Origin: Methanobacteriota archaeon
Lineage (GTDB): Archaea > Thermoplasmatota > Poseidoniia > Poseidoniales > Poseidoniaceae
NCBI GenBank assembly: GCA_002694585.1
Contig: NZMM01000094.1
Coordinates: 1 to 42,081 of the forward strand
DNA length: 42,081 nucleotides
Direction of reading: 5' to 3'
The notes beneath the pieces were generated by a model, which was not told where the DNA came from, did not search any database, and saw only the letters and a list, made by a program, of their open reading frames with translations. The translations under genes and the position numbers were made by a program. This document shows positions 4,465 to 40,516 of this stretch, in pieces. How positions within the stretch are numbered: position 1 is the stretch's first letter; every line of letters starts with the position of its first letter.

Positions 4465-4481
4465 TCCAGAATCGAGTCCCT

Positions 4482-9133: not shown

Positions 9134-9146
9134 CTCCGAAGGCTAG

Positions 9147-10297
9147 TCAGGGGTGCTCGGCGGCCCATCGTGCGGCGGCGACTCCCGCCCGGTGACCCGT
9201 GCTGAGACACGCCTGGATCAGGTAACCGCCGGTCGGGGCGTCCCATGCGACCATCTCGCCGGCCACCCAGGTGCCGGGCCGGTCGAGGAGCATGCCGGTG
9301 TCGTCGATGGCATCAAGGGCGACGCCGCCGGCGGTCGAGATGGCGCGATCGATCGGGGCCAGACCTTCGACCGGAATCGGCACAGCCTTGGCGAGGTCGG
9401 CGACCGCCGTCGCCTCGGTCGGCAGCCGGTTGCCGGTGGTGTCGCGAAGGAGGGCGACATCGACCGGACTGAGTCCGCCTTTCCGGAGCCAGGTCGACAC
9501 GGAGTCCTTCGGCCGGCGGCGATCGACGAGACGGGCCGCCAGTGCGTCGGCGTCGAGGTCGGGTTGCAGGTCGATCTCAAGCCCATGTCCGCTTCGAAGT
9601 TCGGGACCCAGCGCGTAGATCGGGCCGCCTTCCAGGCCGGTTGCGGTGATCGTCGGTTCGCCTCGAACGGTGCGAACTCCGGCGGTGAGGGCGGCGTTCT
9701 TGATCGGCACCCTTCGAAACGTTCGAGCAGCGGGGCCGACCAGGTGACGAGCACGCCGGCGTTCGATGCGACAAACGGCACCACCGGAATTCCTGCCGTC
9801 TCGACGTGCGCGCACCACGAACCATCACCGCCGACCGACGGCCAGCTTGCGCCACCGAGGGCAAGCACGGTGGCACTGTCGTCGGCGAAGCCCGCCCACG
9901 TCTCCCCCGTTCGCATCGCGACGCCGAGACCGGCGAGCCGGGCCGTCCAGGCCCGAAGCAGACCGGTGGCTCGCATCGCCGCGGGAAACACCCGGCCCGA
10001 CGAGCCGACGAACGTGTCGGCGCCGAGTTCATCAGCCCACGCGCGCACGGCGTCGGGCGGAAACGCCCGGATCGCGGGCTCGAGCATCGCTCGCCCGTCG
10101 CCGTAGCGGCCGAGGAACACCTCAAGCGGCTCCGCGTGCGTGAGGTTGAGTCCGCTGCGGCCGGCGAGCAGCAGCGTGCGCCCGAACGACCGGCGCTGAT
10201 CGACGATCGTCACCTCGGCACCGGCGCCGGCAGCCGCCTCCGCCGCCATGAGCCCGGCGGGACCGGCTCCGACCACCGTCACCGTCGGCTGCACCAC
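9147..10297 (-). pseudogene. HI0933/BaiN-like (TIGR03862-type) FAD flavoprotein, split by a 1-nt frameshift
   Basis: The N-terminal half is in ORF 9218..10297 (VTVVGAGPAGLMAAEAAAGAG ... SAPLLERFEG). The homologous C-terminal half is in ORF 9147..9818 (VPIKNAALTAGV ... RAISTAGGVALD ... GEMVAWDAPTGGYLIQAC). The frames switch at the CCC/GGG run 9710-9712. Confidence 0.75.
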
Positions 10298-10313
10298 GTG
10301 CGCACCCTACGCC

Positions 10314-10327
10314 CCGGTGGCCACCGG
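10314..10327. promoter_or_regulatory. perfect 14-bp palindrome CCGGTGGCCACCGG in a divergent intergenic region
   Basis: Read directly from the sequence. Lies in the 56-bp gap between the start of the flavoprotein pseudogene and the fatty-acid hydroxylase gene. Confidence 0.25.
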
Positions 10328-10353
10328 CCGAGGGAAGAGGCCAGACTACCGAC

Positions 10354-11286
10354 ATGGACAAGAGGGCGCTTCCTCTCGACAAGGTCGACCTCGCATCGGG
10401 CCCCATCTTCATCGCGACGATGTTGTGGGAGGCCCAGGTACTGAAGAAGCGGCAGCGGCGCGACGTGGGTGATCTCGATCATGCAACCCCCGACGAGCTC
10501 TCGGAACCATCGCTGCCGGCCGATCCCCTCGTGCCGATCGGCTATCAGCGTGACGACACCCGCACGAGCCTGCTGATGCTGGCCGGCAACGTGGCGGTCA
10601 GCCTGGCGTTCGCCGGCGCCTACGGCACCCTCACGAAGAAGCTCTACGACAAACGGCGCGTCACCTTCGCCAACCCGAAGGTGTCCTTCGCCGCCACGTT
10701 CATCGCCTGGGACTTCCTCTACTACTGGTCCCACCGGCTCCAGCACGAGCGACGGCTGCTGTGGGCCAACCATGTCACCCACCACTCGAGCCGGTACTAC
10801 AACCTCTCGACCGCACTGCGACAGCCGTGGCAGGGCTATCTCACCTTCGGGATCTTTGCGCCGATGCCGCTCCTCGGCATGCCCGCTCACCACATCGCCA
10901 AGGCCGGTCAACTGAATCTGCTGTACCAGTACTGGATCCACACCGAGACGATCGACAAGCTGCCGGCGCCGATCGAGGCCGTGTTCAACACACCGTCACA
11001 TCACCGGGTCCACCACGGCGCCAACCCCCAGTACCTCGACAAGAACTACGGCGGGATCCTCATCCTCTGGGACAAACTCTTCGGCACGTTCGAACCCGAA
11101 CTGCGCCGGGTGAAGTACGGCCTCACCACGAACATCGAGACGTTCAACCCCGTGAAGGTCGGCTACCACGAGACGGTCGACATCGTGAAGGACGTCGTCC
11201 GCCGCAAGGGCCTCAAGAACAAGGTGAAATCCGTGCTCGGAAGGACCGGCTGGCGCCCCGTCGACGAGCTCGGCACCGCCGCCTAG
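10354..11286 (+). CDS. fatty acid hydroxylase / sterol desaturase superfamily membrane di-iron oxygenase
   Basis: Three histidine boxes: HRLQHE, HVTHHS and HHRVHHG. Hydrophobic N-terminal helices are present. Confidence 0.85.
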   Translation: MDKRALPLDKVDLASGPIFIATMLWEAQVLKKRQRRDVGDLDHATPDELSEPSLPADPLVPIGYQRDDTRTSLLMLAGNVAVSLAFAGAYGTLTKKLYDKRRVTFANPKVSFAATFIAWDFLYYWSHRLQHERRLLWANHVTHHSSRYYNLSTALRQPWQGYLTFGIFAPMPLLGMPAHHIAKAGQLNLLYQYWIHTETIDKLPAPIEAVFNTPSHHRVHHGANPQYLDKNYGGILILWDKLFGTFEPELRRVKYGLTTNIETFNPVKVGYHETVDIVKDVVRRKGLKNKVKSVLGRTGWRPVDELGTAA

Positions 11287-15516: not shown

Positions 15517-15972
15517 TCAGTGGTCAGAGGTGACAGCCATTCGGTGTTCGCCGTCGCCGACGTGCTGATCCGATTGCTGCTGGCGTTCGCGTAGGTGGAG
15601 TCCGAGGAAGATGCCCGGGATGGCGACCAGGCCGAGCATCGCACCGGACGACACCATGACGAGCGCCGGTGCCGGGCACGTGCCGGCGAGCGCCCAACCG
15701 ATGCCGAACAATGCGCCGCCCTGAACGTGGTGCTTCTCGGGCATCGAGCGCGAAAGCGAGAGTTCGCCACCGAACGGCGTGTTCATGCCGCGCCGCTCAA
15801 GAAGGTCGAGCAGCGGCGCCGACACTGCGATCGCCGAGGCCATGAACCAGAAGACGTCGAACTCGTCGAGGCGCAGCATCGCATGGATGGTGTCGTACTC
15901 GTGGAGGTTGGAGGCGGCGAGCACGCCGCCGAAGGCGATGCCGAAGAGCATGCCGATGACGTTGAGCCTCAC
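15517..15972 (-). CDS. YeeE/YedE-family (DUF395) sulfur-compound transport membrane protein, second half-size subunit
   Basis: 151 aa and hydrophobic, with a GTCPAP motif. The GTG start overlaps the upstream stop (GTGA). Confidence 0.8.
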   Translation of the reverse strand: MRLNVIGMLFGIAFGGVLAASNLHEYDTIHAMLRLDEFDVFWFMASAIAVSAPLLDLLERRGMNTPFGGELSLSRSMPEKHHVQGGALFGIGWALAGTCPAPALVMVSSGAMLGLVAIPGIFLGLHLRERQQQSDQHVGDGEHRMAVTSDH

Positions 15973-16448
15973 AGGTCACCCCCGGTCGCAATACGCAGGA
16001 CAAAGGTGGTGAGGATCGCCGTCGCCATGAAGGTGACGGTGACAGCCACGCTCGCAGGCGAGCGCTGGGCGGTGCCGCACATGCCGTGGCCGGAGGTGCA
16101 GCCACCGGCCACCGCTGCGCCGTAGCCCAACAGCGTTGCACCGCCGAACACGAGAGGGATCGTCGCCCACAACGGGAACACATCGCGCATGGCGTCGTAC
16201 CCCGACCGGATCTCAGCGCCCTCGCGAAACACCTGAGTAACGAGCAGACCACCGGCGAACAGACCGACGAAGTACCAGACCCGCCAGACGACGACGTCGC
16301 TTCGGCGACGGATGAGTCCGGAGGTCTGGACATAGGCGCCGCTGGCACCGAGCGGCTGGTTGGCCACGACGAAGAGACCGACAATCAACAAACCGAGGAT
16401 CGGACCACCGACGAACCACGCCAGCCGGTCCGGAAGGGCATCGAACAT
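15969..16448 (-). CDS. YeeE/YedE-family (DUF395) sulfur-compound transport membrane protein, first half-size subunit
   Basis: 159 aa, with ANQPLGASGAY and the conserved Cys motif GGCTSGHGMCG. Confidence 0.8.
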   Translation of the reverse strand: MFDALPDRLAWFVGGPILGLLIVGLFVVANQPLGASGAYVQTSGLIRRRSDVVVWRVWYFVGLFAGGLLVTQVFREGAEIRSGYDAMRDVFPLWATIPLVFGGATLLGYGAAVAGGCTSGHGMCGTAQRSPASVAVTVTFMATAILTTFVLRIATGGDL

Positions 16449-16484
16449 GTGCAGTGCCTTTCGAGCGGAGAGAGGGGGGAGAGA

Positions 16485-17870
16485 TCAGGCCGACTGCGCT
16501 TCGTGGACGGCGGTCCAGGCGCCGTAGCCGCCGAGCAGATCGGAGACGTCGGCGAATCCGGCCGAGACGAGGCGGCTGGCACCGATCGACGAGCGGTAGC
16601 CGCCGGCGCAATAGACGACCGTGGGCTTCGAGGCGTCGAGCGAGGCCAGCATGCTGTTGAGCTGCGGTAGCGGGGCGAGGATCGCGCCCTCGATCATCCC
16701 ACCCTCGGCTTCGCCGGGGCCTCGAACGTCGACGAGCTGTAGCTCGGGCGAGGACGCTATGGCGTCACGCAGCGCAGCGACGTCGAGACGGCTGCCGCGG
16801 GCGACTTCGTCGGGATTGTCGAGGAACGCCTGCTCGGCGTGACGCAGACAACCGACGACGTTGTCGAAGCCGATGCGGGCGAGACGGTTCTTGGCTTCGC
16901 GCTGCTGGCCTTCCTCGGCAACGATCACGATCGGTGCACCCGGCTGGACGACACCACCGGCGAACTCGGCGTAACGACCGGCCATGCCGATGTTGATCGA
17001 GCCGATCAGGTGTCCGAGAGCGAACTCGACGGGATCGCGGGTGTCGACGACGGCGGCACCGCGGCGCTGCCAGCGAGCGACCTCCTCGACCGAGAGTGCT
17101 ACCGGCTCGGCGTGCTCGTCGAGCAGCGCACGATTCTCGCGATTGAGCATGGCATCGAAGGCGAAATACGCCGGCGGCGTCGGCTGACCCTCGGTGACGG
17201 CGAGCACGAAGTTGTCCTTGCTCATCGGCTGCAGGGCGTAGTTGCCGGCACGCTGCTCACCGATGGTCGACGACGTATCGGTCGAGAGGTTCTTGCCGCA
17301 GGCGGAACCGGCACCGTGCGCAGGGAAGACACGGGTTGCGTCAGGCAGGGTGAGCAGCTGCTCGTGCAGCGAGTCGTAGAGCTGACCGGCGAGTTCGTCG
17401 GCGGTGACGCCGATCGATGAAAGCAGATCGGGACGGCCGACGTCGCCGATGAACATGGTGTCGCCGGTGAGCACGGCGTACGGCGTCTCGTCGTCGGCGT
17501 GCTCGTAGACCACGATCGAAATCGATTCGGGCGTGTGGCCCGGGGTGTGACGGATTTCGAGGGTGACGTCACCGAGGCTGTATCGCTCGCCGTCGGCAAA
17601 GCCCCGGGATTCGAACTCGGTGACGGCGACATCGCCATACCCGATCTCCGCTCCGGTGGCAGCAGCCAGCTCGAGGTGGCCCGAGAGAAAGTCGGCGTGG
17701 AAGTGCGTCTCGAGCACCAGCTCGATCGTGAGCCCGTGCTCCTCGGCCGTCTCGAGATAGGGCGACACGTCGCGACGGGGGTCGACGACGACGGCACGCT
17801 TCGTGCTCTCGTCGGCGATGACATAGGAGGCCTGCGAGAGACAATCGAGATAGTGCTGTTCGAAGAGCAT
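16485..17870 (-). CDS. persulfide dioxygenase (ETHE1-like MBL fold) fused to two rhodanese domains; CstB/Blh type
   Basis: 461 aa. The MBL motif is ETHFHADFLSG ... HTPGHTPES. The first rhodanese domain has no active-site Cys. The second carries the catalytic loop CAGGYRS. Confidence 0.88.
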   Translation of the reverse strand: MLFEQHYLDCLSQASYVIADESTKRAVVVDPRRDVSPYLETAEEHGLTIELVLETHFHADFLSGHLELAAATGAEIGYGDVAVTEFESRGFADGERYSLGDVTLEIRHTPGHTPESISIVVYEHADDETPYAVLTGDTMFIGDVGRPDLLSSIGVTADELAGQLYDSLHEQLLTLPDATRVFPAHGAGSACGKNLSTDTSSTIGEQRAGNYALQPMSKDNFVLAVTEGQPTPPAYFAFDAMLNRENRALLDEHAEPVALSVEEVARWQRRGAAVVDTRDPVEFALGHLIGSINIGMAGRYAEFAGGVVQPGAPIVIVAEEGQQREAKNRLARIGFDNVVGCLRHAEQAFLDNPDEVARGSRLDVAALRDAIASSPELQLVDVRGPGEAEGGMIEGAILAPLPQLNSMLASLDASKPTVVYCAGGYRSSIGASRLVSAGFADVSDLLGGYGAWTAVHEAQSA

Positions 17871-17942
17871 CCGGTTCGTCCTTTCACCGTGAGCTTCCCG
17901 ATGATGCGAGGGCAGCTGTTGGCGGTCGACAACGTCGACATG

Positions 17943-17971
17943 AGTAGAACTAATGTCCGTACATTTGTCAA
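17943..17971 (-). promoter_or_regulatory. candidate promoter/operator of the dioxygenase-yeeE genes: TTGACA followed by the palindrome AATGTACGGACATT
   Basis: On the minus strand, TTGACA (17971-17966) abuts the 5-4-5 inverted repeat AATGT-ACGG-ACATT (17965-17952). This is a locally AT-rich patch. I found no convincing TAnnnT -10 at 16-19 nt spacing. Confidence 0.3.
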
Positions 17972-18008
17972 GGACGGGCCTTGCCCCCGCCCCCGTCGAC
18001 CGGTGGGA

Positions 18009-20852
18009 TCAGTCGTCGAGCAGGTAGGCGCTGGGGTTCGGCTTGAGCGGACGGGCGTACCAGAGCGGACGACGCAGACCGGAATCGTTGGTACCGGCCG
18101 GGCGGGTCTTGCTCATCCAGTCGAGGTAGGCCTCACGAGACTTCGCCGTGTCGACCACGACGTCGCCGTACTCGTCGCCGGGCTGAGCCGGCGTGACATG
18201 CACCCGCTGATGCCAGCACTGCATGCCCGAGATCGGGTCGGGCTGCACACAGAACGTCGCGTTCTGATGCACGCCGGTGTCCTTCCACCAGATGCGGGAG
18301 GTGTCGTCATCGTCGGAGTCGTAGGCCTCGATGCCCTGCTCGCGCTGGAGCTTCCACGTGGTGCCACCCCCGTCGTTCTGCTGGGCGGTGATCGACGCCT
18401 TGCCGGCGCCCCATGAACGGGCCTTATCGTCCTCGAGCCGCCAGCGGCCCATGTGATGCGAGGCAGCGACGACACCCGGTCGGATGCCCTCGGTGCGCCA
18501 GGCCTGGATCACGAAGTGGCCGATGCGGGTCGTGATCCGCACGAGGCCACTCTCCTCGATCTCGAGCTTCTCGGCATCTTCCGGGTGGATCCACAACGGG
18601 TGCCGGTGGCTGATCTCGTTGAGCCACTTGGAGTTGGCCGAACGCGTATGGATCAGGGTCGGAATGCGGAAGGTCGGGAGCAGGATGCGTTCCGTACCCG
18701 CCATGTCGAGGTCTTCCCAGTGCACATGGCTCGGAATCCATTTCGGCGTGGCGTATTCGGGCCAGCCCCATTCCTTGAGGGTGGTGGAGAACAGTTCGAG
18801 CTTCTTGGACGGCGTCGGGAAGCCCTCCTTCGCCTCACCGTCGATCTCAACCGCAGGTGAACCGTCGCCGAGCGGGGCGAGCTTCAGGTCGGCAAGGGTC
18901 GACAGGTCGCCGTCCCACGAACCTGGAGTGCCGGCTTTGCGGTACACGCCATCGGCGTCGACCTCGCAACCGGCAAGGGCATCGGCCGAAACCGAGCGCT
19001 CGTAGGGCTCGTAGGGGACCGTCGGCACGGCGAACGACGAGCGGTTGCGCATGTATTCGAGCGGGGTCTCCCCCACCTCGGCGGCCGCTTCGGCGAGGCC
19101 GGGGACCTCGTTCTCGAACATCTTGCCGTAGTACTCGTCGACGCTGAGGGGCTTCTCGACGTCGTCGGGCGACTGGAACCACTCGCGGATACCGAGCGAA
19201 CCGTCAGGGTCGATCTTCCAGGAGAGATCGATCCAGAACTCGTTCTCCTCCCAGACCTCACCTGGGTTGTACTCGAACGTACGAGTGCCTTCGGGCAGGT
19301 CGCCCCCGGCCTGGATCTCGGCGAAACGGCGGAAGGTGGGCTGGCGGAAACTCACCCAGCGACCGGCATGGGTCTCGTAGGAGGTGATGTCGTGCCGTTC
19401 GGCACCCACCCCCATCGGTAGGACGTAGTCGGCGAACCACGACGTCTCGGACCAGGTCGGGGTGAGCGCCACGTGACACTTCACCTTCGTTTCGTCCTTC
19501 AACGCCTCCATCCAGGTGAAGCCGTCGGGATTGGTCCAGATCGGGTTGTAGACCCGGCTGAAGTAGACGTCGAGCGTGCCGCGGCCCTCGTTGAGGAAGT
19601 GCGGCAGCAGGATCGACATCTCGTGGTAAGCGAGCGGGAACTCCTTGGGCCACTCGAGGTGGTTCCACTCGTGGGTGTTCGGCGCACCGATCGGGTCGTG
19701 CGGCTTGAACTTGTTCATGCCGTTGCCGGCGGTACCGCCCTTGGTGGCGACCGAACCGGTGAGCACGTTCAGGAAGAAGAGACAGCGGGCGACCTGCCAA
19801 CCGCCCATGTTGCCGGCGCCGGCGGCCCGCCAGTTGTGGCTGGCGAACTTCGTCGGGTTGGCGCCGATCACTGCAGCGATCTCGCGGATGGTGTCGGCGT
19901 CGATGCCGGTCTTTTGCTCGGCGGCTTCGGGGGTGTACTCGGCGTACTCCTCGAGCAGCGCGGCCCGGAGCTGCGAGAACTCGACCGGTTTTCCGGGGAC
20001 CCGCTCCTTCAGGTAGGTCTCCCAGTTGACCCATCGCTCGACGAACTCGGCGTTCCACTCCTCGGACTCGATCAGCAGGCGAGCGATCGAGAGCAGAAGG
20101 AACGGCTCGGTGCCGGGCCACGTGGGCAGCCAGTAGTCGGCTTTGGCGCCGGTGTTCGAGAGGCGAGGATCGCAGGCGATGACCTTGGCACCGTTGGCCT
20201 GCGCCTCGATGATGCGCTGCGCGTGCGGGTTGAAGTAGTGCCCTGACTCGAGGTGGGAGGAGATCAAGAAGATCACCTTGGCGTTGGCGAAGTCGGAGCT
20301 GGGCCGGTCGTGGCCCATCCAACTCTGGTAGCCGATCCGGGCGTTGCTCGAGCAGATGTTGGTGTGGCTGTTGTGGCCATCGACGCCCCACGCCTTGAGC
20401 ACACGGTCGGTGTACCCCTCTTCGCCGGGTCGACCGACGTGGTACATCACACCGTTCTTGCGACCCTCGACGAAGGCGGTGCGGATCTTCTCGCCGACCT
20501 CGGTGAGCGCCTCCTCCCACGAGATGCGCTCCCACTGGCCCGAGCCGCGCTCACCGACGCGGCGCAGCGGGAACATGACCCGCTCCGTGTCGTAGATCTG
20601 GTTGAGCGTGGCAGGCCCCTTGGCGCAGTTGCGGCCGCGGCTGCCCGGATGATGCGGGTTGCCCTCGATCTTGCGGATTTCGCCGGTCTCTTTGTCGTGG
20701 TAAGCGACGAGGCCGCACCCGGCTTCACAGTTGAAGCAGGTGGTGGGGACAAGGGTGTAGTTCTTCTCGACCTTGTCGGGCCACGCCTTGGCGTCGAGTT
20801 CGGTCCAGTCGTGCCACTGCTCGGCCGGCGGGTACTTGTTGAGATCAGTCAT
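18009..20852 (-). CDS. molybdopterin (bis-MGD, DMSO-reductase/MopB superfamily) oxidoreductase catalytic subunit without a Tat or Sec signal; SoeA-like by inference
   Basis: 947 aa. An N-terminal 4Fe-4S motif CFNCEAGCG ... C (RGRNCAKG) follows a signal-less, RR-less N-terminus MTDLNKYPPAEQWHDW. The candidate Mo-ligand region is HTNICSSNAR. The C-terminal barrel block is WIHPEDAEKLEIEESGLVRITTRIGHFV. Confidence 0.85.
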   Translation of the reverse strand: MTDLNKYPPAEQWHDWTELDAKAWPDKVEKNYTLVPTTCFNCEAGCGLVAYHDKETGEIRKIEGNPHHPGSRGRNCAKGPATLNQIYDTERVMFPLRRVGERGSGQWERISWEEALTEVGEKIRTAFVEGRKNGVMYHVGRPGEEGYTDRVLKAWGVDGHNSHTNICSSNARIGYQSWMGHDRPSSDFANAKVIFLISSHLESGHYFNPHAQRIIEAQANGAKVIACDPRLSNTGAKADYWLPTWPGTEPFLLLSIARLLIESEEWNAEFVERWVNWETYLKERVPGKPVEFSQLRAALLEEYAEYTPEAAEQKTGIDADTIREIAAVIGANPTKFASHNWRAAGAGNMGGWQVARCLFFLNVLTGSVATKGGTAGNGMNKFKPHDPIGAPNTHEWNHLEWPKEFPLAYHEMSILLPHFLNEGRGTLDVYFSRVYNPIWTNPDGFTWMEALKDETKVKCHVALTPTWSETSWFADYVLPMGVGAERHDITSYETHAGRWVSFRQPTFRRFAEIQAGGDLPEGTRTFEYNPGEVWEENEFWIDLSWKIDPDGSLGIREWFQSPDDVEKPLSVDEYYGKMFENEVPGLAEAAAEVGETPLEYMRNRSSFAVPTVPYEPYERSVSADALAGCEVDADGVYRKAGTPGSWDGDLSTLADLKLAPLGDGSPAVEIDGEAKEGFPTPSKKLELFSTTLKEWGWPEYATPKWIPSHVHWEDLDMAGTERILLPTFRIPTLIHTRSANSKWLNEISHRHPLWIHPEDAEKLEIEESGLVRITTRIGHFVIQAWRTEGIRPGVVAASHHMGRWRLEDDKARSWGAGKASITAQQNDGGGTTWKLQREQGIEAYDSDDDDTSRIWWKDTGVHQNATFCVQPDPISGMQCWHQRVHVTPAQPGDEYGDVVVDTAKSREAYLDWMSKTRPAGTNDSGLRRPLWYARPLKPNPSAYLLDD

Positions 20853-20879
20853 CGGTTTCAGCTTTCGGCGAGCAGACGA

Positions 20880-22454
20880 TCAGGAGAGAGGGACGGACTG
20901 GCCGGCCCGGACGAAGGCGTCTTCGTAGGCGAAGAGGCCGGCGACCGCGGCGATGCCGGCGGCGGCGAGCGGGGCGGGGCTCGAGATGTCGGTGGCGAGC
21001 ACGAGGATCGCGATCGCGGCCGGCACGACCAACCCGACCGTGATCCCACCGACCCAGAACTGTCGGGCGTACCGGCCGCGGGTCATCGTCTCAACGGCGA
21101 GTTCGACATGGCGGCTGCCGTGACTGGCGAGCTCCATCCAGACGAAGGCGCCGGTGGCCACGACACCACCGAGCAGCACCCACGCGATGGCGTCCTGCTC
21201 AGGCAGATCCATGAACACATCGAGCACGGCATAGGTGGCACCGCCGGCGGTGACGGCCTGGGCGAGCAGCACGGGTAGCAGCAGCGGGGTCTGCCACAGA
21301 TCGCGGCCTTCACACTGGGCGAAGAGGTACGCGGTGTAGCCGGCCGTCCCGAGGGCGCCCAGTGCAGCAGGGACGGCGACGATCTCGATCAGGCCATCGT
21401 TCTCGGTGAGGCCACCGACCCACCACAGGCCGCACATCGCAGCGAAGAACATCAAGACGTAGGCGCCCTTCACCAGCCACGAGTCGGTGTTGCCCCTGGT
21501 GAGCAGATAGTGGAATCGGGTCGGCTGCTTGAGGTCGGCGATCAACAACACGCCGGTGATCCCGAGGAAGACGCCAGCGACCATTGGCGGCACGACACCG
21601 ACCGCAGCCTGCTCGGCGGCGTGCCCCAGCAACACGAGCAGCGCAGCGACCAGTATCACGCCGGCCGCGATCGCTTTGGTGACCAGGTAGCCCGACACCT
21701 TTTCCTTCCACGTCATCATGTGCGTGGTGGTGTACGCCGTGCGGGCGACAACACCGTCGAGATCGGCCGGCTTCTGACCGATCGAGACCGGAACCGTCGG
21801 GTGGTTCTTGTCGTGGGTGCCGGTGATCGTGTCGGCCCAGATCATGCCGTCGTTCGCGATCGCGGTGCGGGTCGGGTCAAGCGATGCCTGGTCAGCGCCC
21901 CGGTAGTAGACCTTCGGCTTGGTGTTTTGTTCCGGGGCCCGGACGGCGACGTCGTCCCGAGCGATGATCCTGGAGATCTCCGAGTTGGGGTCGTCGAGAT
22001 CACCGATCTTGATCGCCTCGGTCGGACACACGATCTGGCACGACGGCTCGAGGTTCATCTCGATGCGGTGGTTGCACATGTTGCACTTGTGCGCCGTGTT
22101 GGTCTCGGGGTTGATGTACAGCGCGTCGTACGGGCAGGCGTTCATGCACGACTTGCACCCGATGCAGTTGTCGTCCTGGAAGTCGACGACGCCGTTCTCG
22201 GCTCGATAGAGCGCCGAGGTTGGGCAGATCTTCATGCACGGCGCGTCGTCGCACTGGTTGCATCGCATCACCGAGAACTTGCGGGCGACGTCGGGGAACG
22301 TGCCGGTCTCGATGTATTTCACCCAGGTGCGGTTCACCCCGAGGGGGACGTCGTGCTCGCTTTTACAGGCGACGGTGCAGGCGTGACAGCCGATGCAACT
22401 GTCGCTGTCGAGGAGGAAACCCAGTCGTGTCACCCTCACAGTGTCGGTCGACAT
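20880..22454 (-). CDS. fusion of a 4x[4Fe-4S] ferredoxin subunit (DmsB/PsrB/SoeB-like) to an NrfD/PsrC-type 8-helix quinone-interacting membrane anchor
   Basis: ORF 20880..22823 trimmed to ATG 22454 (MSTDTVRVTRLGF). Four Cys clusters are present: CIGCHACTVAC, CNQCDDAPCMKIC, CIGCKSCMNAC and CNMCNHRIEMNLEPSCQIVC. About 8 hydrophobic helices follow. The longer ORF would overlap the LysR gene with junk sequence. Confidence 0.85.
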   Translation of the reverse strand: MSTDTVRVTRLGFLLDSDSCIGCHACTVACKSEHDVPLGVNRTWVKYIETGTFPDVARKFSVMRCNQCDDAPCMKICPTSALYRAENGVVDFQDDNCIGCKSCMNACPYDALYINPETNTAHKCNMCNHRIEMNLEPSCQIVCPTEAIKIGDLDDPNSEISRIIARDDVAVRAPEQNTKPKVYYRGADQASLDPTRTAIANDGMIWADTITGTHDKNHPTVPVSIGQKPADLDGVVARTAYTTTHMMTWKEKVSGYLVTKAIAAGVILVAALLVLLGHAAEQAAVGVVPPMVAGVFLGITGVLLIADLKQPTRFHYLLTRGNTDSWLVKGAYVLMFFAAMCGLWWVGGLTENDGLIEIVAVPAALGALGTAGYTAYLFAQCEGRDLWQTPLLLPVLLAQAVTAGGATYAVLDVFMDLPEQDAIAWVLLGGVVATGAFVWMELASHGSRHVELAVETMTRGRYARQFWVGGITVGLVVPAAIAILVLATDISSPAPLAAAGIAAVAGLFAYEDAFVRAGQSVPLS

Positions 22455-22463
22455 CGGGTCCAG

Positions 22464-22486
22464 CGATAGAGGGTCGTGCTCTATCG
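22464..22486. promoter_or_regulatory. perfect inverted repeat CGATAGAG-N7-CTCTATCG (candidate LysR recognition site)
   Basis: Read directly from the sequence. Lies in the 49-bp divergent gap between the FeS-NrfD gene (ATG 22454) and the LysR gene (ATG 22504). Confidence 0.5.
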
Positions 22487-22490
22487 CGCC

Positions 22491-22505
22491 ATAGAATGTC
22501 TCTAT
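22491..22505 (+). promoter_or_regulatory. second dyad ATAGA-N5-TCTAT containing a TAGAAT -10-like hexamer 6 nt before the LysR ATG
   Basis: ATAGAATGTCTCTAT shares the ATAGA/TCTAT half-sites of the first dyad. TAGAAT at 22492-22497, then 6 nt, then ATG 22504 implies a leaderless LysR mRNA. Confidence 0.4.
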
Positions 22506-23400
22506 GCCTTTGCCGGCGTCGTTCCCCGAACTCGCATCGCTCGACCTCTTCGTTTCGGTGGTCGAGCTCGGCAGTGTGTCGCGGGCGGCGGCTGCCCATG
22601 GGGTCAGCCAGCCGTCGGCGAGCAGCCGAATCAAGCATCTCGAACGCCAGCTCGGGATGCGACTCCTCGACCGAGGACCCAGCGGATCGCTCCCGACCGA
22701 CGCCGGGGTGGTCGTCGCTGGCTGGGCCGAGACGATCCTGCGCGCCGCCCATGAGCTCGAGGCCGGCCTCTCCGCCTTCCAGGCCGCCCAGGCGGGACGT
22801 CTCCGGATCGTCGCCAGCTTCACGATCGCCGAGTACCTCCTCCCCCAATGGCTCGACCGTTTCTCACGCGATCACCCCCGGGATTCGATCGCTCTCGAAG
22901 TGGCGAACTCCACCACCGTGATCGACCGGCTGCGCCACGGCGCCGCCGACCTCGGCTTCATCGAGACCCCGTCGGAGCTCGACGGCCTCGATGAGGCCAC
23001 CGTCGGCAACGACGAACTCGTCACCGTTGTCGCACCCAGCCATCCGTGGGCGACACCTCGCACGGTGCCGGTCGAGGCGCTCGCTGCCACCCCTCTGGTC
23101 ATGCGCGAGGCGGGCTCCGGCACCCGAGCTGCACTGGCGGCGGCCTTGCGGGATCTCGGCCTCGGCGAACCGAGCGCCGTGCTCGAACTCGGCTCGACAT
23201 CAGCCGTTCGGGCCGCCGTCGTTCACGGCAACTCCCCCACCGTGATCAGCCGGCTTGCGGTCGCGGCGGAGGTCGCCGCCGGACAGCTGGTGGAGATCGA
23301 CGTGCCTGGCCTGTCGGTCGCCCGTCACCTCCGGGCCGTGTGGCCAGCGGGCACGGCGCTGCCGTCACTCGCCCGCGAACTTCTCGACGACATCCGGTGA
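22504..23400 (+). CDS. LysR-family transcriptional regulator
   Basis: 298 aa. N-terminal wHTH is LFVSVVELGSVSRAAAAHGVSQPSASSRIKHLERQLG, followed by a C-terminal substrate-binding domain. Confidence 0.9.
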   Translation: MPLPASFPELASLDLFVSVVELGSVSRAAAAHGVSQPSASSRIKHLERQLGMRLLDRGPSGSLPTDAGVVVAGWAETILRAAHELEAGLSAFQAAQAGRLRIVASFTIAEYLLPQWLDRFSRDHPRDSIALEVANSTTVIDRLRHGAADLGFIETPSELDGLDEATVGNDELVTVVAPSHPWATPRTVPVEALAATPLVMREAGSGTRAALAAALRDLGLGEPSAVLELGSTSAVRAAVVHGNSPTVISRLAVAAEVAAGQLVEIDVPGLSVARHLRAVWPAGTALPSLARELLDDIR

Positions 23401-26043: not shown

Positions 26044-26805
26044 TTAGTCGGCTGCAGGGCGTAGATCGGACCGGCCGCTCGGCGACCACTCCGAGACGAA
26101 GCGATAGCGATCGCCGCGAATCAGGGTCGTTCGCCACTCGACCGGTGTTCCGTTGTGGATACCGAGCCGCTCAAGTCCGAAGACGGCGGCCCCCGACGGG
26201 AGGTCGAGAAGCGCACGGTCCGCTGGCGGCGGTACAAGCGGGGAAAGCCGTTCCCAACCGGCGGTCGGGGGCGGGGCGCCGATCCGGCTCATCTCGTCGT
26301 AGAGCGCCGTGTGGGTCCAATCGACCGAAAGCAACGGCTCGACAACGGCCAACGGCAGCCACGCCCGGTCGACGGCGAGCGGCTCTCCACCGGCCCGCCG
26401 GAGCCGGGCGAGATGGAACAACTCGGTGTCCTCGTCAATCTGCAGCCGGGCCGCAGCGATCGAGTCGGTGACCACCGCAAGCTCCAACACCTCGCTGGCC
26501 TGTTCGGTTCCGGTCGACTCGATCGACTGGAACAGCGAGTACAGGGTGCCGAGCGGTTGTTCGAACTCGCTGCGGTTGATGACCGTGCCCCGGCCCCGTT
26601 CGCGCTTGAGGATCCCGGTCTTGTTGAGATGACGGATCGCTTCGCGCACGGTGTGGCGGCTGACCTCGTAGCCCTCGGTCAGCTCGAGATCGGTCGGGAA
26701 CCGACCGTCGCTGAACTCTCCCGCATCGATGCGGCGACGCAGCTCAGCCTCGAGCTGCGCCCACAACGGCACCGGGTCGGCGCGGTCGAGCGGCACAAGC
26801 GGCAT
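26044..26805 (-). CDS. GntR-family (HutC subfamily, UTRA effector domain) transcriptional regulator
   Basis: ORF 26044..26841 trimmed to ATG 26805. wHTH is PLWAQLEAELRRRI ... PTDLELTEGYEVSRHTVREAIRHLNKTGILKRERGRGT, followed by a C-terminal UTRA-like region. Confidence 0.88.
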   Translation of the reverse strand: MPLVPLDRADPVPLWAQLEAELRRRIDAGEFSDGRFPTDLELTEGYEVSRHTVREAIRHLNKTGILKRERGRGTVINRSEFEQPLGTLYSLFQSIESTGTEQASEVLELAVVTDSIAAARLQIDEDTELFHLARLRRAGGEPLAVDRAWLPLAVVEPLLSVDWTHTALYDEMSRIGAPPPTAGWERLSPLVPPPADRALLDLPSGAAVFGLERLGIHNGTPVEWRTTLIRGDRYRFVSEWSPSGRSDLRPAAD

Positions 26806-26825
26806 GACCTGCAATCTGCCCTCGC

Positions 26826-26850
26826 TGTCCGGACAATGCAAACAATTGTC
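26826..26850. promoter_or_regulatory. cluster of palindromes upstream of the GntR gene: TGTCCGGACA, GACAAT-N7-ATTGTC and ACAATTGT
   Basis: Read directly from the sequence. TGTCCGGACA is at 26826-26835, the inverted pair GACAAT/ATTGTC at 26832-26837 and 26845-26850, and ACAATTGT at 26842-26849. All lie 21-45 nt upstream of the GntR ATG. Confidence 0.4.
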
Positions 26851-26878
26851 TGGATTCGTCCGGCCCGGCGACCGAGAG

Positions 26879-27202
26879 TCAGTCGTGATCCTTGCCGGTG
26901 TCGGTCGCCAGGTCGTCTCGACCGATCGGTACCGGTTCGGTGCGATGCACGGCCCGGAACAGGAGATGCACGGCGACCGGCAGGGTCAACACGAGAGCCA
27001 CCGCCACGACGAGGAACTCGGCCCGACCGGCCCAGCCGGTCTCGAGCGACGCGCCGATCGCGACAAGCAGGAAGGCGATCGGGCTGGCCTTGCCGGCTGC
27101 GTGGAATCGGGCGTAGGGGGTGCGGAACCGCAGCATGCCGATGCCGGACAGCAACGACACGAAACTGCCGAGCAGGACGAAGGCGGCGGCGACTGGACTC
27201 AT
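26879..27202 (-). CDS. mrpG: Na+(K+)/H+ antiporter subunit G
   Basis: 107 aa and 3 helices, with GMLRFRTPYARFHAAGKAS typical of MnhG/MrpG. It is the last gene of a seven-gene overlapping operon. Confidence 0.88.
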   Translation of the reverse strand: MSPVAAAFVLLGSFVSLLSGIGMLRFRTPYARFHAAGKASPIAFLLVAIGASLETGWAGRAEFLVVAVALVLTLPVAVHLLFRAVHRTEPVPIGRDDLATDTGKDHD

Positions 27203-27459
27203 GTCGCACGCTCCTCATACTCGATGAAGCGGCTCGCAGCGACGGTGGCCGTGAACCCGACAATCGCCATGACGGCGAGCACCGGAACGAGGCGGGTCGA
27301 GCCGGTGTCGGCCGCATCCACGGCGACCGCACTCATGATCGACACGACGCCGACATCCAGGGCGACAACACGATCAGCGAGCGTCGGGCCGATGGCCGCA
27401 CGGATACCGGCAGTGACGAACGTGAGCCCGAAAACGATGAGCGCAATGCTGGCGATCAC
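27199..27459 (-). CDS. mrpF: Na+(K+)/H+ antiporter subunit F
   Basis: 86 aa, with GPTLADRVVALD typical of MrpF. Shows 4-nt overlaps on both sides. Confidence 0.88.
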   Translation of the reverse strand: MIASIALIVFGLTFVTAGIRAAIGPTLADRVVALDVGVVSIMSAVAVDAADTGSTRLVPVLAVMAIVGFTATVAASRFIEYEERAT

Positions 27460-27974
27460 GACGGCACCTCGGAATCGGTGGGCATCGGGAGGGCCCGACA
27501 GGCAAGGTCGGCGAGTTCCTGCACATGCTCCGCAGTAGCTTCGGCCCGCTCGGCATGGAGAATGTGGAGATAGATCCGGCTGGTGTCGGGGTCGACGTCG
27601 ATCACGGCGGTGCCCGGCGTGACGGTGACCGCAACCGCGATCAACATCATGTGGGCCCGAGCGTTGCTGGGCAGATCGACACCGATGATCGCTTCCTCGG
27701 TGTAGTCGGTCGGGGTGATGACCTCATAGGCAACGTTGAACGTCGACATGACGAGGTCCTGGCCGACGATCGCACCAAGTTTCAGAAGGGGGCGCAGGCG
27801 GACCCCACCGATACCGGCGGGACCGACGCTTCGGTGGCTCACGACGACCGCGACCAGCAGGCCCGACACGATGTTGGCGATCGACAACCGATTCCAGAGC
27901 GCACACCACGCAGCGACGAGGCCGACGATGAGGATCACCCGACGGCTCGGGAAGTGACGCCGCAGGAGCCTCAC
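27456..27974 (-). CDS. mrpE: Na+(K+)/H+ antiporter subunit E
   Basis: 172 aa. Position in the operon, N-terminal helices and the ITLTPGT-like block (VTVTPGTAVIDVD) support the call. Confidence 0.85.
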   Translation of the reverse strand: MRLLRRHFPSRRVILIVGLVAAWCALWNRLSIANIVSGLLVAVVVSHRSVGPAGIGGVRLRPLLKLGAIVGQDLVMSTFNVAYEVITPTDYTEEAIIGVDLPSNARAHMMLIAVAVTVTPGTAVIDVDPDTSRIYLHILHAERAEATAEHVQELADLACRALPMPTDSEVPS

Positions 27975-29455
27975 GACACCACCGCCTCGATGTAGGCACT
28001 CGGGTTGAGCAAGTCGGCAGCAGCACGCTCGCCCAGATCCCAGAGCGGACCAAAGGACGCAGCAATCGCAAGCGAAGCGACCAGCGCAACCGCCGTGGCA
28101 CCGACCATCAGGCGGTGACCGGGACGAAGGATCCGGATGGGGGTCGCTGATTCGTCGTCGCCAGATCCCCAGAACACCCCGGTCCAGATCTTCACCATCG
28201 ACACGAGGGTAAGGACGCTGTTGGCGAGGGCGATGACGACGATCGGCACCACCACCTTCTCGATGCCGGCATCGACGAGCGCGAGCTTGGCGACGAAGCC
28301 CGAGAACGGCGGGATACCGGCGAGGCTGAGCGCCGGCAACGCGAACAACACGGCGAGCAGCGGCTGACGCTGAGCAAGCCCACCGATCTTGTCAAGCGCC
28401 GAGGTTCCTTCTCGCTCCTCGATGAGCCCGCCGACGAGGAACAGCACCGTCTTCACCGGGATGTGGTGCACGAGGAAGACGATGGCACCGGCGACGCCGG
28501 CAAGGGTGAACAGGCCGAGGCCCATCAGCATGTAGCCGATCTGGCTGATGATGTGGAACGACAGGATGCGCTTGACGTCGTCTTGGGCGAGCGCACCGGC
28601 AACGCCGATCACCATCGTCAGAGCCGCCAGGGTGAGGATGAGCGGCCCGAGGTCGTCCATGCCGGTCAACACATGGAACCGAATCAGGACGTACACCCCG
28701 ATCTTGGTCAGCAAGCCGGCGAACACGGCGGTGATCGTGGTGGGCGCCGTCGGGTAGCTGTCGGGAAGCCACGAGAACAGCGGGAAGATGGCGGCCTTGG
28801 TGCCGAACACGACGAGGAACCACAGGCCGATGCCCCATCGCAGCGGATCGTCGAGTTCGGGGATGCGCTCGGCCAGCAGGGCCAGATTGACCGTGCCGGT
28901 CGAGGCGTAGACGACGGCGAGGCCGACGAGGAAGAGGGTTGAGGCGAAAAGGTTCATCGCCACGTAGGTCATGCCCGAACGGATCTGGCCGCGACGGCCC
29001 TGGTGGGTCAGCAGCACATAGCTGGAGACGAGGATCAGCTCGAAGGCGACGAAGAGCGTGAAGAGGTCGCCGGTGAGGAAGGCGAGCACCACCCCGGAGG
29101 TCAGCACCAGCAGCAGTGGCCCGGACAGTTGGGGGTCGGCGCCCCACGCAGTGCGCCGCTGTCCGATGGCGAAGAGCTGTACCACCAGGATCGTGGCCAT
29201 CGCGACCAGCAGGACGAGCGCCGCCATCAGATCGACGACGAGGACGATGCCGAGTTCGGGATCCCAGTCGCCGACGCGGAGCACGACCGTTCCCTCGGAC
29301 TCGACGTGAGCGAGCAGGATGCCGGCGATCGCCGTTGCGCCTGCGAGCGAGCCGACGGTGAGGATGTCGCGGACCCACTGCCGTTCGCCGGCGACGAAGC
29401 CGATTGCGGCGGCGAGCATCGGGACGACGACAAGGAGGCCGATGAGCGAGGTCAT
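27971..29455 (-). CDS. mrpD: Na+(K+)/H+ antiporter subunit D (NuoN/NuoL-like proton-pumping module)
   Basis: 494 aa and polytopic, with the blocks FELILVSSYVL, KAAIFPLFSWLPDSYP and LAQDDVKRILSFHIISQIGYM. Confidence 0.92.
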   Translation of the reverse strand: MTSLIGLLVVVPMLAAAIGFVAGERQWVRDILTVGSLAGATAIAGILLAHVESEGTVVLRVGDWDPELGIVLVVDLMAALVLLVAMATILVVQLFAIGQRRTAWGADPQLSGPLLLVLTSGVVLAFLTGDLFTLFVAFELILVSSYVLLTHQGRRGQIRSGMTYVAMNLFASTLFLVGLAVVYASTGTVNLALLAERIPELDDPLRWGIGLWFLVVFGTKAAIFPLFSWLPDSYPTAPTTITAVFAGLLTKIGVYVLIRFHVLTGMDDLGPLILTLAALTMVIGVAGALAQDDVKRILSFHIISQIGYMLMGLGLFTLAGVAGAIVFLVHHIPVKTVLFLVGGLIEEREGTSALDKIGGLAQRQPLLAVLFALPALSLAGIPPFSGFVAKLALVDAGIEKVVVPIVVIALANSVLTLVSMVKIWTGVFWGSGDDESATPIRILRPGHRLMVGATAVALVASLAIAASFGPLWDLGERAAADLLNPSAYIEAVVS

Positions 29456-29823
29456 GCGTCGTCCCCTTCGGCTTCGGTCTCGAGGGCGATGCGGCGATCT
29501 TCGAGATCGTCCTCGACAAGGTCGTCGCCCGTGAGCTGGGCCTGCCGGCGAGCAAGGGCCAACAGGAAGAGCGTCAGGCCGAACGAGATCACGATTGCGG
29601 TGAGGGCGAACGCCTGGGGAAGCGGGTCGGACAGTTCGTCCACCGGAGCGTCACCCGAAATGGGGCGCTCGCCGGCCTCCCCGCCGGCGGCGAGCAGCGC
29701 CACCACGGCCGCGTGGCCGAGCAGGGCGAACCCGAGCAGCATGCGGGTGAGCGACCGGGAGGTGATCAGATAGACGCCGACCGAGGTCAGGCCACCGACG
29801 ACGAGGGCGAGGGTGACACTCAT
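29452..29823 (-). CDS. mrpC: Na+(K+)/H+ antiporter subunit C (NuoK-like)
   Basis: 123 aa. Starts MSVTLALVVGGLTSVGVYLITSRSLTRMLLG and includes PLPQAFALTAIVISF. Confidence 0.9.
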   Translation of the reverse strand: MSVTLALVVGGLTSVGVYLITSRSLTRMLLGFALLGHAAVVALLAAGGEAGERPISGDAPVDELSDPLPQAFALTAIVISFGLTLFLLALARRQAQLTGDDLVEDDLEDRRIALETEAEGDDA

Positions 29824-30251
29824 ACCTGCACCTCGTCACGGCCGAGTTCGTCGGCGTCGAGGCCGTCGAAGACAGCGACGAAGAGGCCGACGACGATCGC
29901 CGTGACCCCCGCGTCGAACACCAACGCACTCCCGGACTTGACCTTGCCGAGCAGCGGCAGGGTCTCGGAGACGATGACCTGGTCGAGCAGCGGCTCGCCG
30001 CCGAGCAGCGGAGCGAGGGCGACCGCCGAAACCAATGCGGTACCGACGGCGAACCAACGGGCGGCGTCCTGAGGCCGGCCGATACCGGCGACGGTGCGCA
30101 GCGCGACAACTGCGCCGATCACGAGGCCGGCCGCGAAACCACCACCGGGCTGGTTGTGGCCGGCGAAGAAAAGAAAGGCGGCAACGAGCAGCGCAAGCGG
30201 ACTTGCGGCACGGATCGCGCTGCGGACAACGGGCGAACGACCGCGAATCAT
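29820..30251 (-). CDS. mrpB: Na+(K+)/H+ antiporter subunit B
   Basis: 143 aa, with the MnhB-domain motif AGHNQPGGGFAAGL. Confidence 0.88.
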   Translation of the reverse strand: MIRGRSPVVRSAIRAASPLALLVAAFLFFAGHNQPGGGFAAGLVIGAVVALRTVAGIGRPQDAARWFAVGTALVSAVALAPLLGGEPLLDQVIVSETLPLLGKVKSGSALVFDAGVTAIVVGLFVAVFDGLDADELGRDEVQV

Positions 30252-32518: not shown

Positions 32519-32641
32519 CGTGACCCTTGGGGGAGGCCGGTACGCCCCGATGCTAGCGGATCGGGCCGGGTTGAATACGGGCCGATTGGCCTCTGACCGC
32601 CACCCGTTCCTGTGGCCTCGAGCAACGCCGCGCCGGTACGG

Positions 32642-32680
32642 ACAAAACATCGATGGCGAGGCCCGGAGGCCTCGCCATCG
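32642..32680 (-). terminator. intrinsic terminator downstream of sodN
   Basis: A perfect 13-bp GC-rich stem (CGATGGCGAGGCC / GGCCTCGCCATCG, 32651-32663 and 32668-32680) closes a 4-nt loop. On the minus strand it is followed by ATGTTTTGT. It begins 24 nt after the sodN stop. Confidence 0.8.

Positions 32681-38350: not shown

Positions 38351-38354
<4 letters not shown>
38163..38354 (-). CDS. copZ: heavy-metal-associated copper chaperone
   Basis: 63 aa with the GMSCGHC metal-binding motif. Shows a 4-nt overlap with the upstream ATPase gene. Confidence 0.9.

Positions 38355-40516
<2,162 letters not shown>

Follow-up and report, generated by a model that had tools for sequence, protein, structure and literature searches.

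The 42,081-nt contig NZMM01000094.1 (assembly GCA_002694585.1, deposited as a Methanobacteriota archaeon and called the window here, at its full length) carries a compact cluster in which a LysR-family regulator gene diverges from a five-gene operon for a membrane-bound molybdenum (Mo) enzyme, a CstB-type persulfide dioxygenase and a split YeeE/YedE transporter. We lean towards the view that the Mo enzyme is a sulfite:quinone oxidoreductase that would act like SoeABC without being its orthologue, and whose membrane topology is predicted to be inverted relative to that of its exported relatives. This Soe-like function is supported by independent genomic contexts, namely linkage to a dioxygenase, to a SulP permease and to taurine/xsc genes. 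The best relatives of this marine actinobacterial cluster are metagenome-assembled genomes of Acidimicrobiales. Its genes and putative control sites are the following:

20880-22454, minus strand: fusion gene for an iron-sulfur (FeS) protein and an NrfD-type anchor (FeS-NrfD), 524 aa, with Pfam domains Fer4_11 and NrfD on one polypeptide
18009-20852, minus strand: gene for a catalytic subunit of the Mo-bis(pyranopterin guanine dinucleotide) (Mo-bisPGD) type, 947 aa, Pfam Molybdop_Fe4S4, Molybdopterin and Molydop_binding
16485-17870, minus strand: CstB-type dioxygenase gene, 461 aa, Pfam Lactamase_B and two rhodanese stretches
15969-16448, minus strand: half-size YeeE/YedE gene, first of the pair, 159 aa, Pfam Sulf_transp (PF04143)
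15517-15972, minus strand: half-size YeeE/YedE gene, second of the pair, 151 aa, Pfam DUF6691 (PF20398) and Sulf_transp (PF04143)
22504-23400, plus strand: LysR-family regulator gene, divergent from the operon, Pfam HTH_1 and LysR_substrate
22463-22487 and 22490-22506, no strand assigned: putative LysR operator sites, perfect inverted repeats in the 49-bp divergent intergenic region

The open reading frame (ORF) list, Pfam, NCBIfam and independent gene calls agree on all six genes at these coordinates. An earlier note on this DNA had described five minus-strand genes from 22454 to 15517 and a divergent LysR gene, and this layout holds, as do the gaps of 27 nt between the FeS-NrfD and Mo genes and of 138 nt between the Mo and dioxygenase genes. 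No terminator-like sites were found in the operon's intergenic gaps, and an Rfam scan of the whole window returned zero matches.

The 947-aa protein is a Mo-bisPGD catalytic subunit that has remained intact, with the FS0 cluster as well as a cysteine ligand. Specifically, its FS0 cysteines (C39, C42, C46 and C76) are conserved across the family, as is Cys167. The latter is part of the invariant stretch HNSHTNICSS and lines up with PsrA Cys173, the Mo ligand of that enzyme, and with a cysteine in ArrA. The AlphaFold2 (AF2) model of this subunit is of moderate confidence (predicted local distance difference test score, pLDDT, 66.6), and the surroundings of the cofactor are too weak for pocket analysis. 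Among distant members of the clade, the Mo-ligand Cys is missing in P0364, P0365 and P0402, the alignment is gapped there in P0371, and P0365 additionally lacks FS0 cysteines.

The partner protein, in which Fer4_11 spans residues 60-152 and NrfD residues 248-518, is a four-cluster PsrB/TtrB-like ferredoxin fused to an eight-helix, NrfD/PsrC-type quinone-interacting anchor. TtrB and ArrB give the top NCBIfam scores for its FeS part, both below cutoff. In the AF2 model the membrane domain has 8 helices at a pLDDT of ~90 and is matched by Foldseek to ActC and PsrC; the FeS domain is modelled poorly. The two domains are also fused in all of the best 120 homologues (493-540 aa), none of which has a signal peptide. 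The earlier note's comparison with a three-subunit enzyme needs one refinement: there are two subunits here, the Mo protein and the fused FeS-NrfD protein. The FeS-NrfD ORF could be extended to 22823 (647 aa), but the extension (22455-22823) overlaps the LysR gene and this longer reading is spurious. Nearly all of 36 aligned homologues begin at or near window residue 8, where a GTG (22433) may serve as the actual start codon and would give 517 aa.

The absence of export signals from both proteins and the strong charge bias of the anchor place the Mo and FeS redox parts in the cytoplasm, with the anchor topology inverted in comparison with the exported relatives. The N-terminus of the Mo subunit has no twin-arginine motif and no twin-arginine translocation (Tat) or Sec signal, and its ORF opens at the first start codon past an in-frame stop; a longer N-terminus is impossible, and the Tat signal that we looked for behind another start cannot exist on this ORF. 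The motif is also missing in the Thermomicrobium, Rhodococcus and Natrinema homologues; it is present in PhsA, DmsA, NapA and an Azoarcus relative. For the anchor, helix boundaries were taken from the AF2 model, as crude hydropathy prediction was too noisy. Across 37 aligned anchors, the loops on the side of the FeS domain carry a mean of 11.3 lysines plus arginines, versus 0.43 on the other side. Counts at homologous loops on the two sides are 8:0, 9:3, 9:0 and 8:0 for the four members of the family compared, and the SoeC of Paraburkholderia phymatum shows 11:2; they are reversed, at 2:7 and 3:9, in the Tat-type anchors of Azoarcus and Sulfurovum. The orientation matches the one predicted for SoeC (PMC8076601), and the signal-less, cytoplasm-facing, quinone-linked enzyme of the earlier note is borne out by these data.

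The family is large, with at least ~600 matching stretches in GTDB species genomes. Gene context was counted in the best 80 of these loci (70-97% identity) by targeted tblastn within 10 kb. Among these 80 loci, all those with enough contig upstream have the FeS-NrfD gene immediately before the Mo gene. A CstB-type dioxygenase gene occurs near the pair in 19 loci, upstream in some and downstream in others; this varying side argues for a functional link and against simple inherited synteny. The YeeE/YedE pair stands beside the Mo genes in eight loci, so that the co-occurrence in relatives proposed from the window extends to both sulfur components of the operon. A SulP permease gene accompanies the Mo pair in nine loci, and in one long contig the operon reads FeS-NrfD, Mo, SulP, rhodanese, dioxygenase, with the SulP protein above the TIGR00815 cutoff. 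On a 1.09-Mb Acidimicrobiales contig (L095), a heliorhodopsin gene at 4120-4908 lies ~2.5 kb upstream of an operon of this composition.

A different set of neighbors, and the most telling one, links the same enzyme to sulfonates. In a sponge-associated clade that includes 'Candidatus Poriferisocius', the Mo subunit is 71% identical to that of the window and the operon order is class-III aminotransferase, TauA-like binding protein, TauB-like, TauC-like, phosphotransacetylase, TetR, FeS-NrfD, Mo. A TetR gene precedes the FeS-NrfD and Mo genes in 17 of the 80 loci; 16 of these 17 have pta, and most also have the class-III aminotransferase and a tauABC-like transporter. A bona fide xsc gene directly follows the Mo gene in 11 of the 80; in L066 it begins 48 nt past the Mo gene and its product scores 999 bits against TIGR03457 (cutoff 676). 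Matches to 'Xsc' at 28-29% identity in L006 and L013 were rejected as other enzymes that use thiamine pyrophosphate. When taurine is broken down via Xsc, sulfite is the only inorganic sulfur product, and it is what the dioxygenase and Xsc contexts have in common. In Paraburkholderia, soeABC takes up this same place in the pathway.

In four loci of the sponge clade (L074, L075, L079 and L081, at ~12.8-22 kb), the place of xsc downstream of the Mo gene is taken by a conserved block consisting of an amidohydrolase-like gene, a LysR gene and genes for what appear by sequence to be sarcosine-oxidase-type subunits. The composition of this block suggests a link to methylated-amine catabolism.

More distant homologues show further arrangements. 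On plasmid pRHL3 of Rhodococcus jostii RHA1, which is genetically tractable, the homologue (54% identity) lies between DsrE2-like and TusA genes on one side and an Mrp/NBP35 gene on the other; opposite the pair are two dioxygenase-type metallo-β-lactamase (MBL) genes, DUF202 genes and an ArsR regulator. A CsoR-family regulator gene precedes the homologue on the Thermomicrobium roseum megaplasmid (57% identity), and Natrinema has the FeS-NrfD/Mo pair plus Mrp/NBP35. The Mrp/NBP35 gene, for an ApbC-like Fe-S carrier, overlaps the end of the Mo gene by a few bases both in R. jostii RHA1 (L084, 10799-11968) and in Natrinema halophilum (L089, 10897-12057). Its product, for which the window has no gene, may be a dedicated maturation factor of the cytoplasmic enzyme. 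The smallest unit that is conserved consists of a regulator gene and the two genes of the Mo enzyme. Because the FeS-NrfD gene is always directly upstream of the Mo gene and sulfur genes recur around the pair in varied orders, the cluster is not a chance arrangement.

To place the enzyme relative to SoeABC, we needed a reference SoeA, as there is no SoeA model among the NCBIfam matches and no SoeA structure in the PDB. One was found by tblastn on plasmids: pBPHY01 of P. phymatum encodes a signal-less 978-aa MopB protein and, after it, FeS and NrfD-like proteins (order A-B-C), adjoining xsc, and close homologues of this MopB protein carry the JGI name 'sulfite dehydrogenase (quinone) subunit SoeA'. 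A Phaeobacter match was rejected as a SoeA reference, being a stand-alone 1142-aa MopB. In BLASTP, the window's Mo subunit aligns with the P. phymatum SoeA over residues 37-491 only (26% identity, 134 bits), scores 188 bits with PhsA and aligns over its full length with a Tat-bearing enzyme of Azoarcus sp. KH32C (394 bits, 31% identity). Among the matches listed, all window-family members that have a JGI label carry a generic COG name only. The subunit falls below the cutoff of every NCBIfam model, with PhsA on top (197 bits, cutoff 694), followed by DmsA-YnfE (178, 778), ArrA (119, 1600) and TtrA (92, 1750).

A neighbor-joining tree agrees with these scores. In it, a 100%-bootstrap clade unites the window protein with those of Thermomicrobium, Rhodococcus, Natrinema and the sponge symbionts, together with a small number of metagenomic representatives; the clade also occurs in Thermomicrobium, Rhodococcus and haloarchaea. 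The search for representatives gave mostly fragments, of which almost none had a name. Its sister group consists of Tat-type Psr/Phs-like proteins, one of which (P0412) bears the JGI name thiosulfate/polysulfide reductase chain A. SoeA forms a separate clade, also at 100%, that lies beyond PhsA and outside both the window clade and the sister group, and E. coli FdnG, NapA and DmsA are farther off still. We looked for placement of the Mo subunit in a non-sulfur clade and found none in this tree, where it stands apart from these three E. coli enzymes.

Two Tat-type relatives deserve separate mention. The Azoarcus match had been a candidate for ArxA, which was rejected because its score is far below the ArrA cutoff and its gene order is B-C-A-TorD; we treat it only as a relative of the Tat type whose context is arsenic-related. 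On pAZKH of Azoarcus sp. KH32C (L085, 6245-11405), the Tat-type FeS/NrfD/Mo/TorD cluster adjoins arsA, an ACR3 gene and a gene for a PhnD-like binding protein with kinase and sigma-54 regulator genes; this may be an undescribed arsenic-linked enzyme. On a Sulfurovum mangrovi plasmid (L090, ~8001-11130), a Mo subunit gene that is 39% identical in a two-piece match, with an NrfD gene on one side and a gene of the TorD family on the other, has no annotated coding sequence. It may be a pseudogene, a frameshifted gene or a recoded gene.

Several of these results weigh against a sulfite-oxidizing role and have to be set beside the context. By sequence the Mo enzyme is not a SoeA and shows no kinship with it beyond the superfamily, and because the kinship stops there, the assignment of its function draws wholly on context and topology. 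Its closest solved relatives, in sequence and in fold by Foldseek, are ArrA (6cz7) and PsrA (2vpw), and the reading is weakened in that the closest characterized relatives reduce polysulfide, thiosulfate or arsenate. The tree behind its placement is a neighbor-joining tree of 35 sequences over 742 columns with few named references. Tat signals are present ahead of the family's YPP-E-W motif in P0367 (43% identity) and P0402, both members of the same 100%-bootstrap clade; the signal of P0367 implies that orientation is not fixed across the wider clade, in which catalytic competence and orientation both seem to vary. In addition, about 35 of the 80 loci have no recognizable sulfur gene within reach, many of them on short contigs. 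Finally, CstB-type fusions turn persulfide into thiosulfate in vitro, and it is not certain that sulfite is the product of the window's dioxygenase. The role in sulfite-to-sulfate oxidation that the earlier note proposed is, as a predicted function, strongly and independently supported by the taurine/xsc and SulP contexts, and is not supported insofar as it was tied to an enzyme of the SoeA type.

Alignments that span the whole of the 461-aa protein were obtained with PDB entries 3tp9 (6.5e-84) and 3r2u (3.3e-53), the latter of which we take to be S. aureus CstB. The ETHFHADF metal motif is aligned, as is the C-terminal rhodanese loop, which reads YCAGGYRS versus YCRTGGRS in 3tp9. The protein is a CstB-type enzyme, a putative persulfide dioxygenase-sulfurtransferase, in which two rhodanese-like domains come after the MBL domain. 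The pair of small membrane proteins covers complementary parts of the PF04143 profile (176-309 for the product of 15969-16448 and 13-101 for that of 15517-15972), and the first has a weak TsuA match in NCBIfam. Judged by these matches they form a split, PmpAB-like YeeE/YedE (TsuA) transporter pair, with sulfur compounds as the predicted substrate class. The 4-nt overlap of their genes suggests translational coupling. A CstB/Blh-type dioxygenase and a split YeeE/YedE pair, as the earlier note had named them, are what the Pfam domains and the structural alignments support.

The LysR-family regulator falls below the cutoff of every NCBIfam equivalog; the top match, also below cutoff, is a selenium-metabolism-associated LysR model. 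A divergent LysR homologue (52-75% identity) occupies the same position in 10 of the 80 related loci and is also present in L096 and L097; elsewhere in the family the regulator is of the TetR, CsoR or ArsR type. The divergent intergenic region of the window contains a perfect 9-nt inverted repeat, GCGATAGAG-N7-CTCTATCGC, at 22463-22487, and 3 nt from it a second dyad, CATAGA-N5-TCTATG, at 22490-22506, which overlaps the LysR start codon. A CATAG-N7-CTATG dyad of the T-N11-A type lies beside the LysR start in the window and in seven of ten other LysR-linked loci examined (L004, L032, L037, L039, L043, L047 and L096). L028 and L031 have CTATG/CATAG half-sites in a different arrangement, and L030 has none. 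These conserved dyads probably reflect control of the divergent operon by LysR.

We propose that the cluster forms a cytoplasmic module under the control of LysR, which would take reduced sulfur to sulfate. The YeeE/YedE pair would move thiosulfate or sulfane sulfur, the rhodanese domains possibly making persulfide from imported thiosulfate, and the CstB-type dioxygenase-rhodanese would oxidize the persulfide sulfur to sulfite. The cytoplasmic Mo site would then oxidize sulfite to sulfate, with electrons running from FS0 via the four ferredoxin clusters of the fusion protein to menaquinone, at an NrfD site on the cytoplasmic side. Sulfate would exit the cell, through SulP in the loci that have it. 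LysR would probably activate the operon from the conserved T-N11-A dyads, and in the sponge-symbiont relatives the same enzyme could be fed sulfite by Xsc during taurine breakdown. On this proposal, SoeABC-like chemistry and topology would have been reached independently, from a lineage related to the Tat-exported Psr/Phs/Ttr-like enzymes, by inversion of the anchor. A broader claim, to which we give about even weight, is that this unnamed, widespread clade arose from Tat-exported Psr/Ttr-like ancestors by fusion of the FeS protein to the anchor and an inward flip of the complex, and that it fills the place of the missing sulfite dehydrogenase in Actinomycetota, Chloroflexota and Halobacteria. 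On this claim it would be convergent with SoeABC and would supply the quinone pool with electrons, both from the breakdown of taurine or sulfonates and from a wholly cytoplasmic path that leads from thiosulfate or persulfide to sulfate (YeeE/YedE, rhodanese, dioxygenase, Mo enzyme, SulP).

Of the other explanations, the one to be taken most seriously, while still unlikely, is that the enzyme kept Psr/Phs/Ttr-type chemistry on the cytoplasmic side, as a quinol-dependent reductase or a thiosulfate-oxidizing enzyme acting on thiosulfate, polysulfide or tetrathionate. It stays alive mainly because CstB-type fusions yield thiosulfate in vitro, and it draws as well on a possible import of thiosulfate by the YeeE family, suggested by the weak TsuA match. 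The ancestry of the enzyme fits it: PhsA tops the NCBIfam scores of the Mo subunit and TtrB and ArrB those of the FeS domain, PsrA and ArrA are the top matches in sequence and fold, and the sister group is Tat-type and Psr/Phs-like, with P0412 among its members. The TusA and DsrE neighbors in RHA1 belong on the same side, as these proteins carry sulfane or thiosulfonate sulfur (cf. PMC4175335). What speaks for sulfite is the 71%-identical enzyme encoded between pta and xsc in 11 sponge-symbiont loci, where sulfite is made and no persulfide or thiosulfate; the scores against the Phs, Ttr and Arr models are also far under their cutoffs, and adjacency to SulP suits sulfate as the end product. That the enzyme has no functional tie to its neighbors, being for example a respiratory dehydrogenase for another substrate that came to lie there by operon shuffling, is improbable. 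The loci that show no sulfur gene nearby (~35/80) and the restriction of the minimal conserved unit to the regulator and Mo-enzyme genes would be expected in that case. However, sulfur links recur in varied arrangements: within Actinomycetota, Acidimicrobiales show them through dioxygenase, SulP and taurine/xsc genes and Rhodococcus through TusA/DsrE, and T. roseum (Thermomicrobiota) is linked by its CsoR-family regulator only. On a rough estimate, chance alone would put a dioxygenase gene within 10 kb in only 1-2% of loci, versus 24% observed.

We consider it very improbable that the module acts on oxyanions of selenium, tellurium or arsenic and not on sulfur. The selenium-associated model at the top of the LysR matches, albeit below cutoff, would fit such a role, as would the ties of YedE/YedF-type proteins to selenium (the RHA1 TusA also matches YedF), the arsA and arsB genes adjoining the 31%-identical Azoarcus enzyme and the rank of ArrA as best solved relative. 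The contexts with taurine/xsc, dioxygenase and SulP genes, though, are specific to sulfur, the ArrA model yields 119 bits against a cutoff of 1600, and no ars gene is present among the labelled neighbors of seven family loci, a count that leaves out the 80 GTDB loci, which were not screened for ars or sel. The slimmest chance of all goes to a divergent true member of SoeABC, that is, a SoeA orthologue whose soeB and soeC have fused. The two enzymes are alike in orientation, catalytic size (947 versus 978 aa), anchor bias and xsc neighborhood, and both have the Cys ligand and a G-R where ArrA has its (R/K)GRY motif. Yet the BLASTP score rises from SoeA (134 bits) through PhsA (188) to Azoarcus (394), the SoeA clade is separate in the tree, and the JGI name SoeA never appears on labelled window-family members among the matches listed. 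The gene order is moreover B-C-A, as in Azoarcus and Sulfurovum, where P. phymatum soeABC has A-B-C, and a survey found no SoeC in Actinobacteria (PMC8076601).

Full-text literature searches turned up no description of the non-orthologous sulfite:quinone oxidoreductase that we prefer, no function given to this Mo-enzyme family and no Soe-type enzyme from Acidimicrobiia. The survey of NrfD-type anchors places SoeC only in Proteobacteria, three Clostridia and Aquificae (PMC8076601); the 'SoeABC' of Sulfobacillus has three genes and is placed close to SoeA and SreA. A North Sea study found strong taurine/sulfonate capacity in Acidimicrobiia and gave TauE export as the only fate of sulfite (bioRxiv 10.1101/2024.12.10.627767). 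Coupling of a persulfide dioxygenase to a Soe enzyme, which the earlier note did not know as a described operon, has been discussed as a pathway for Beggiatoa, where the genes for the dioxygenase and SoeABC are unclustered (PMC11507549).

Among the organisms that use taurine and other organosulfonates, marine Acidimicrobiia and sponge symbionts stand out, and the sulfite that they release is toxic. If the proposal is true, metagenome surveys based on KEGG orthology systematically miss sulfite oxidation in Actinomycetota, Chloroflexota and haloarchaea, and an energy-yielding step would be added to heterotrophic oxidation of sulfide and organosulfur compounds. The enzyme would be a second, independently evolved sulfite:quinone oxidoreductase and a clean natural case of topology inversion in a respiratory enzyme.

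Elsewhere in the window, a multi-subunit Mrp/Mnh-type cation:proton antiporter operon (26700-32650, minus strand) flanks the region, and 38351-40516 appears, judged on its N-terminal sequence only, to be a gene for a heavy-metal P-type ATPase. Both are apparently unrelated to the cluster.

Comparison with known systems brings out what is shared and what is particular to this enzyme. SoeABC, known from Allochromatium vinosum, Aquifex aeolicus and Ruegeria pomeroyi (K21307-K21309), likewise has a Mo-bisPGD subunit of ~950 aa with FS0 and a Cys ligand, no signal peptides and an NrfD-type anchor with a cytoplasm-facing charge bias, and it too adjoins xsc/sulfonate pathway genes and TusA, the latter already known beside soeABC (PMC11507549). 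It differs in that the catalytic subunits share 26% identity over half their length and fall into separate clades, the window family lying outside the SoeA orthologue group by JGI naming, and in that three genes in the order A-B-C stand against two genes in the order B-C-A with FeS protein and anchor fused. The window family also occurs in Actinomycetota, Thermomicrobia and haloarchaea, where SoeC is unreported (PMC8076601).

The Tat-exported Psr/Phs/Ttr/Arr-type enzymes (PsrABC 2vpw, ArrAB 6cz7, PhsABC and the Azoarcus KH32C pAZKH enzyme) are the closest by sequence and fold. They have the same cofactor set and Cys ligand, and the B-C-A order is found in Azoarcus and Sulfurovum. In contrast to them, the window enzyme has no Tat signal and no gene for a TorD-type chaperone, its anchor has the inverted charge bias and is fused to the FeS protein, and its context points to sulfite oxidation and not to respiratory reduction.

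Lastly, the dioxygenase half of the operon resembles the cst operon of S. aureus in its CstB-type MBL dioxygenase with two rhodanese domains, and PmpAB of the blh/pmp operons (Xylella, Serratia) is a half-size YeeE/YedE pair, as in the window. The regulator here is a LysR protein, unlike the CstR or BigR of those operons; CsoR- and ArsR-type regulators accompany the Mo enzyme in T. roseum and RHA1. The cluster differs further from both operon types in having neither sqr nor cstA and in adding to the dioxygenase and transporter genes a quinone-linked Mo enzyme.

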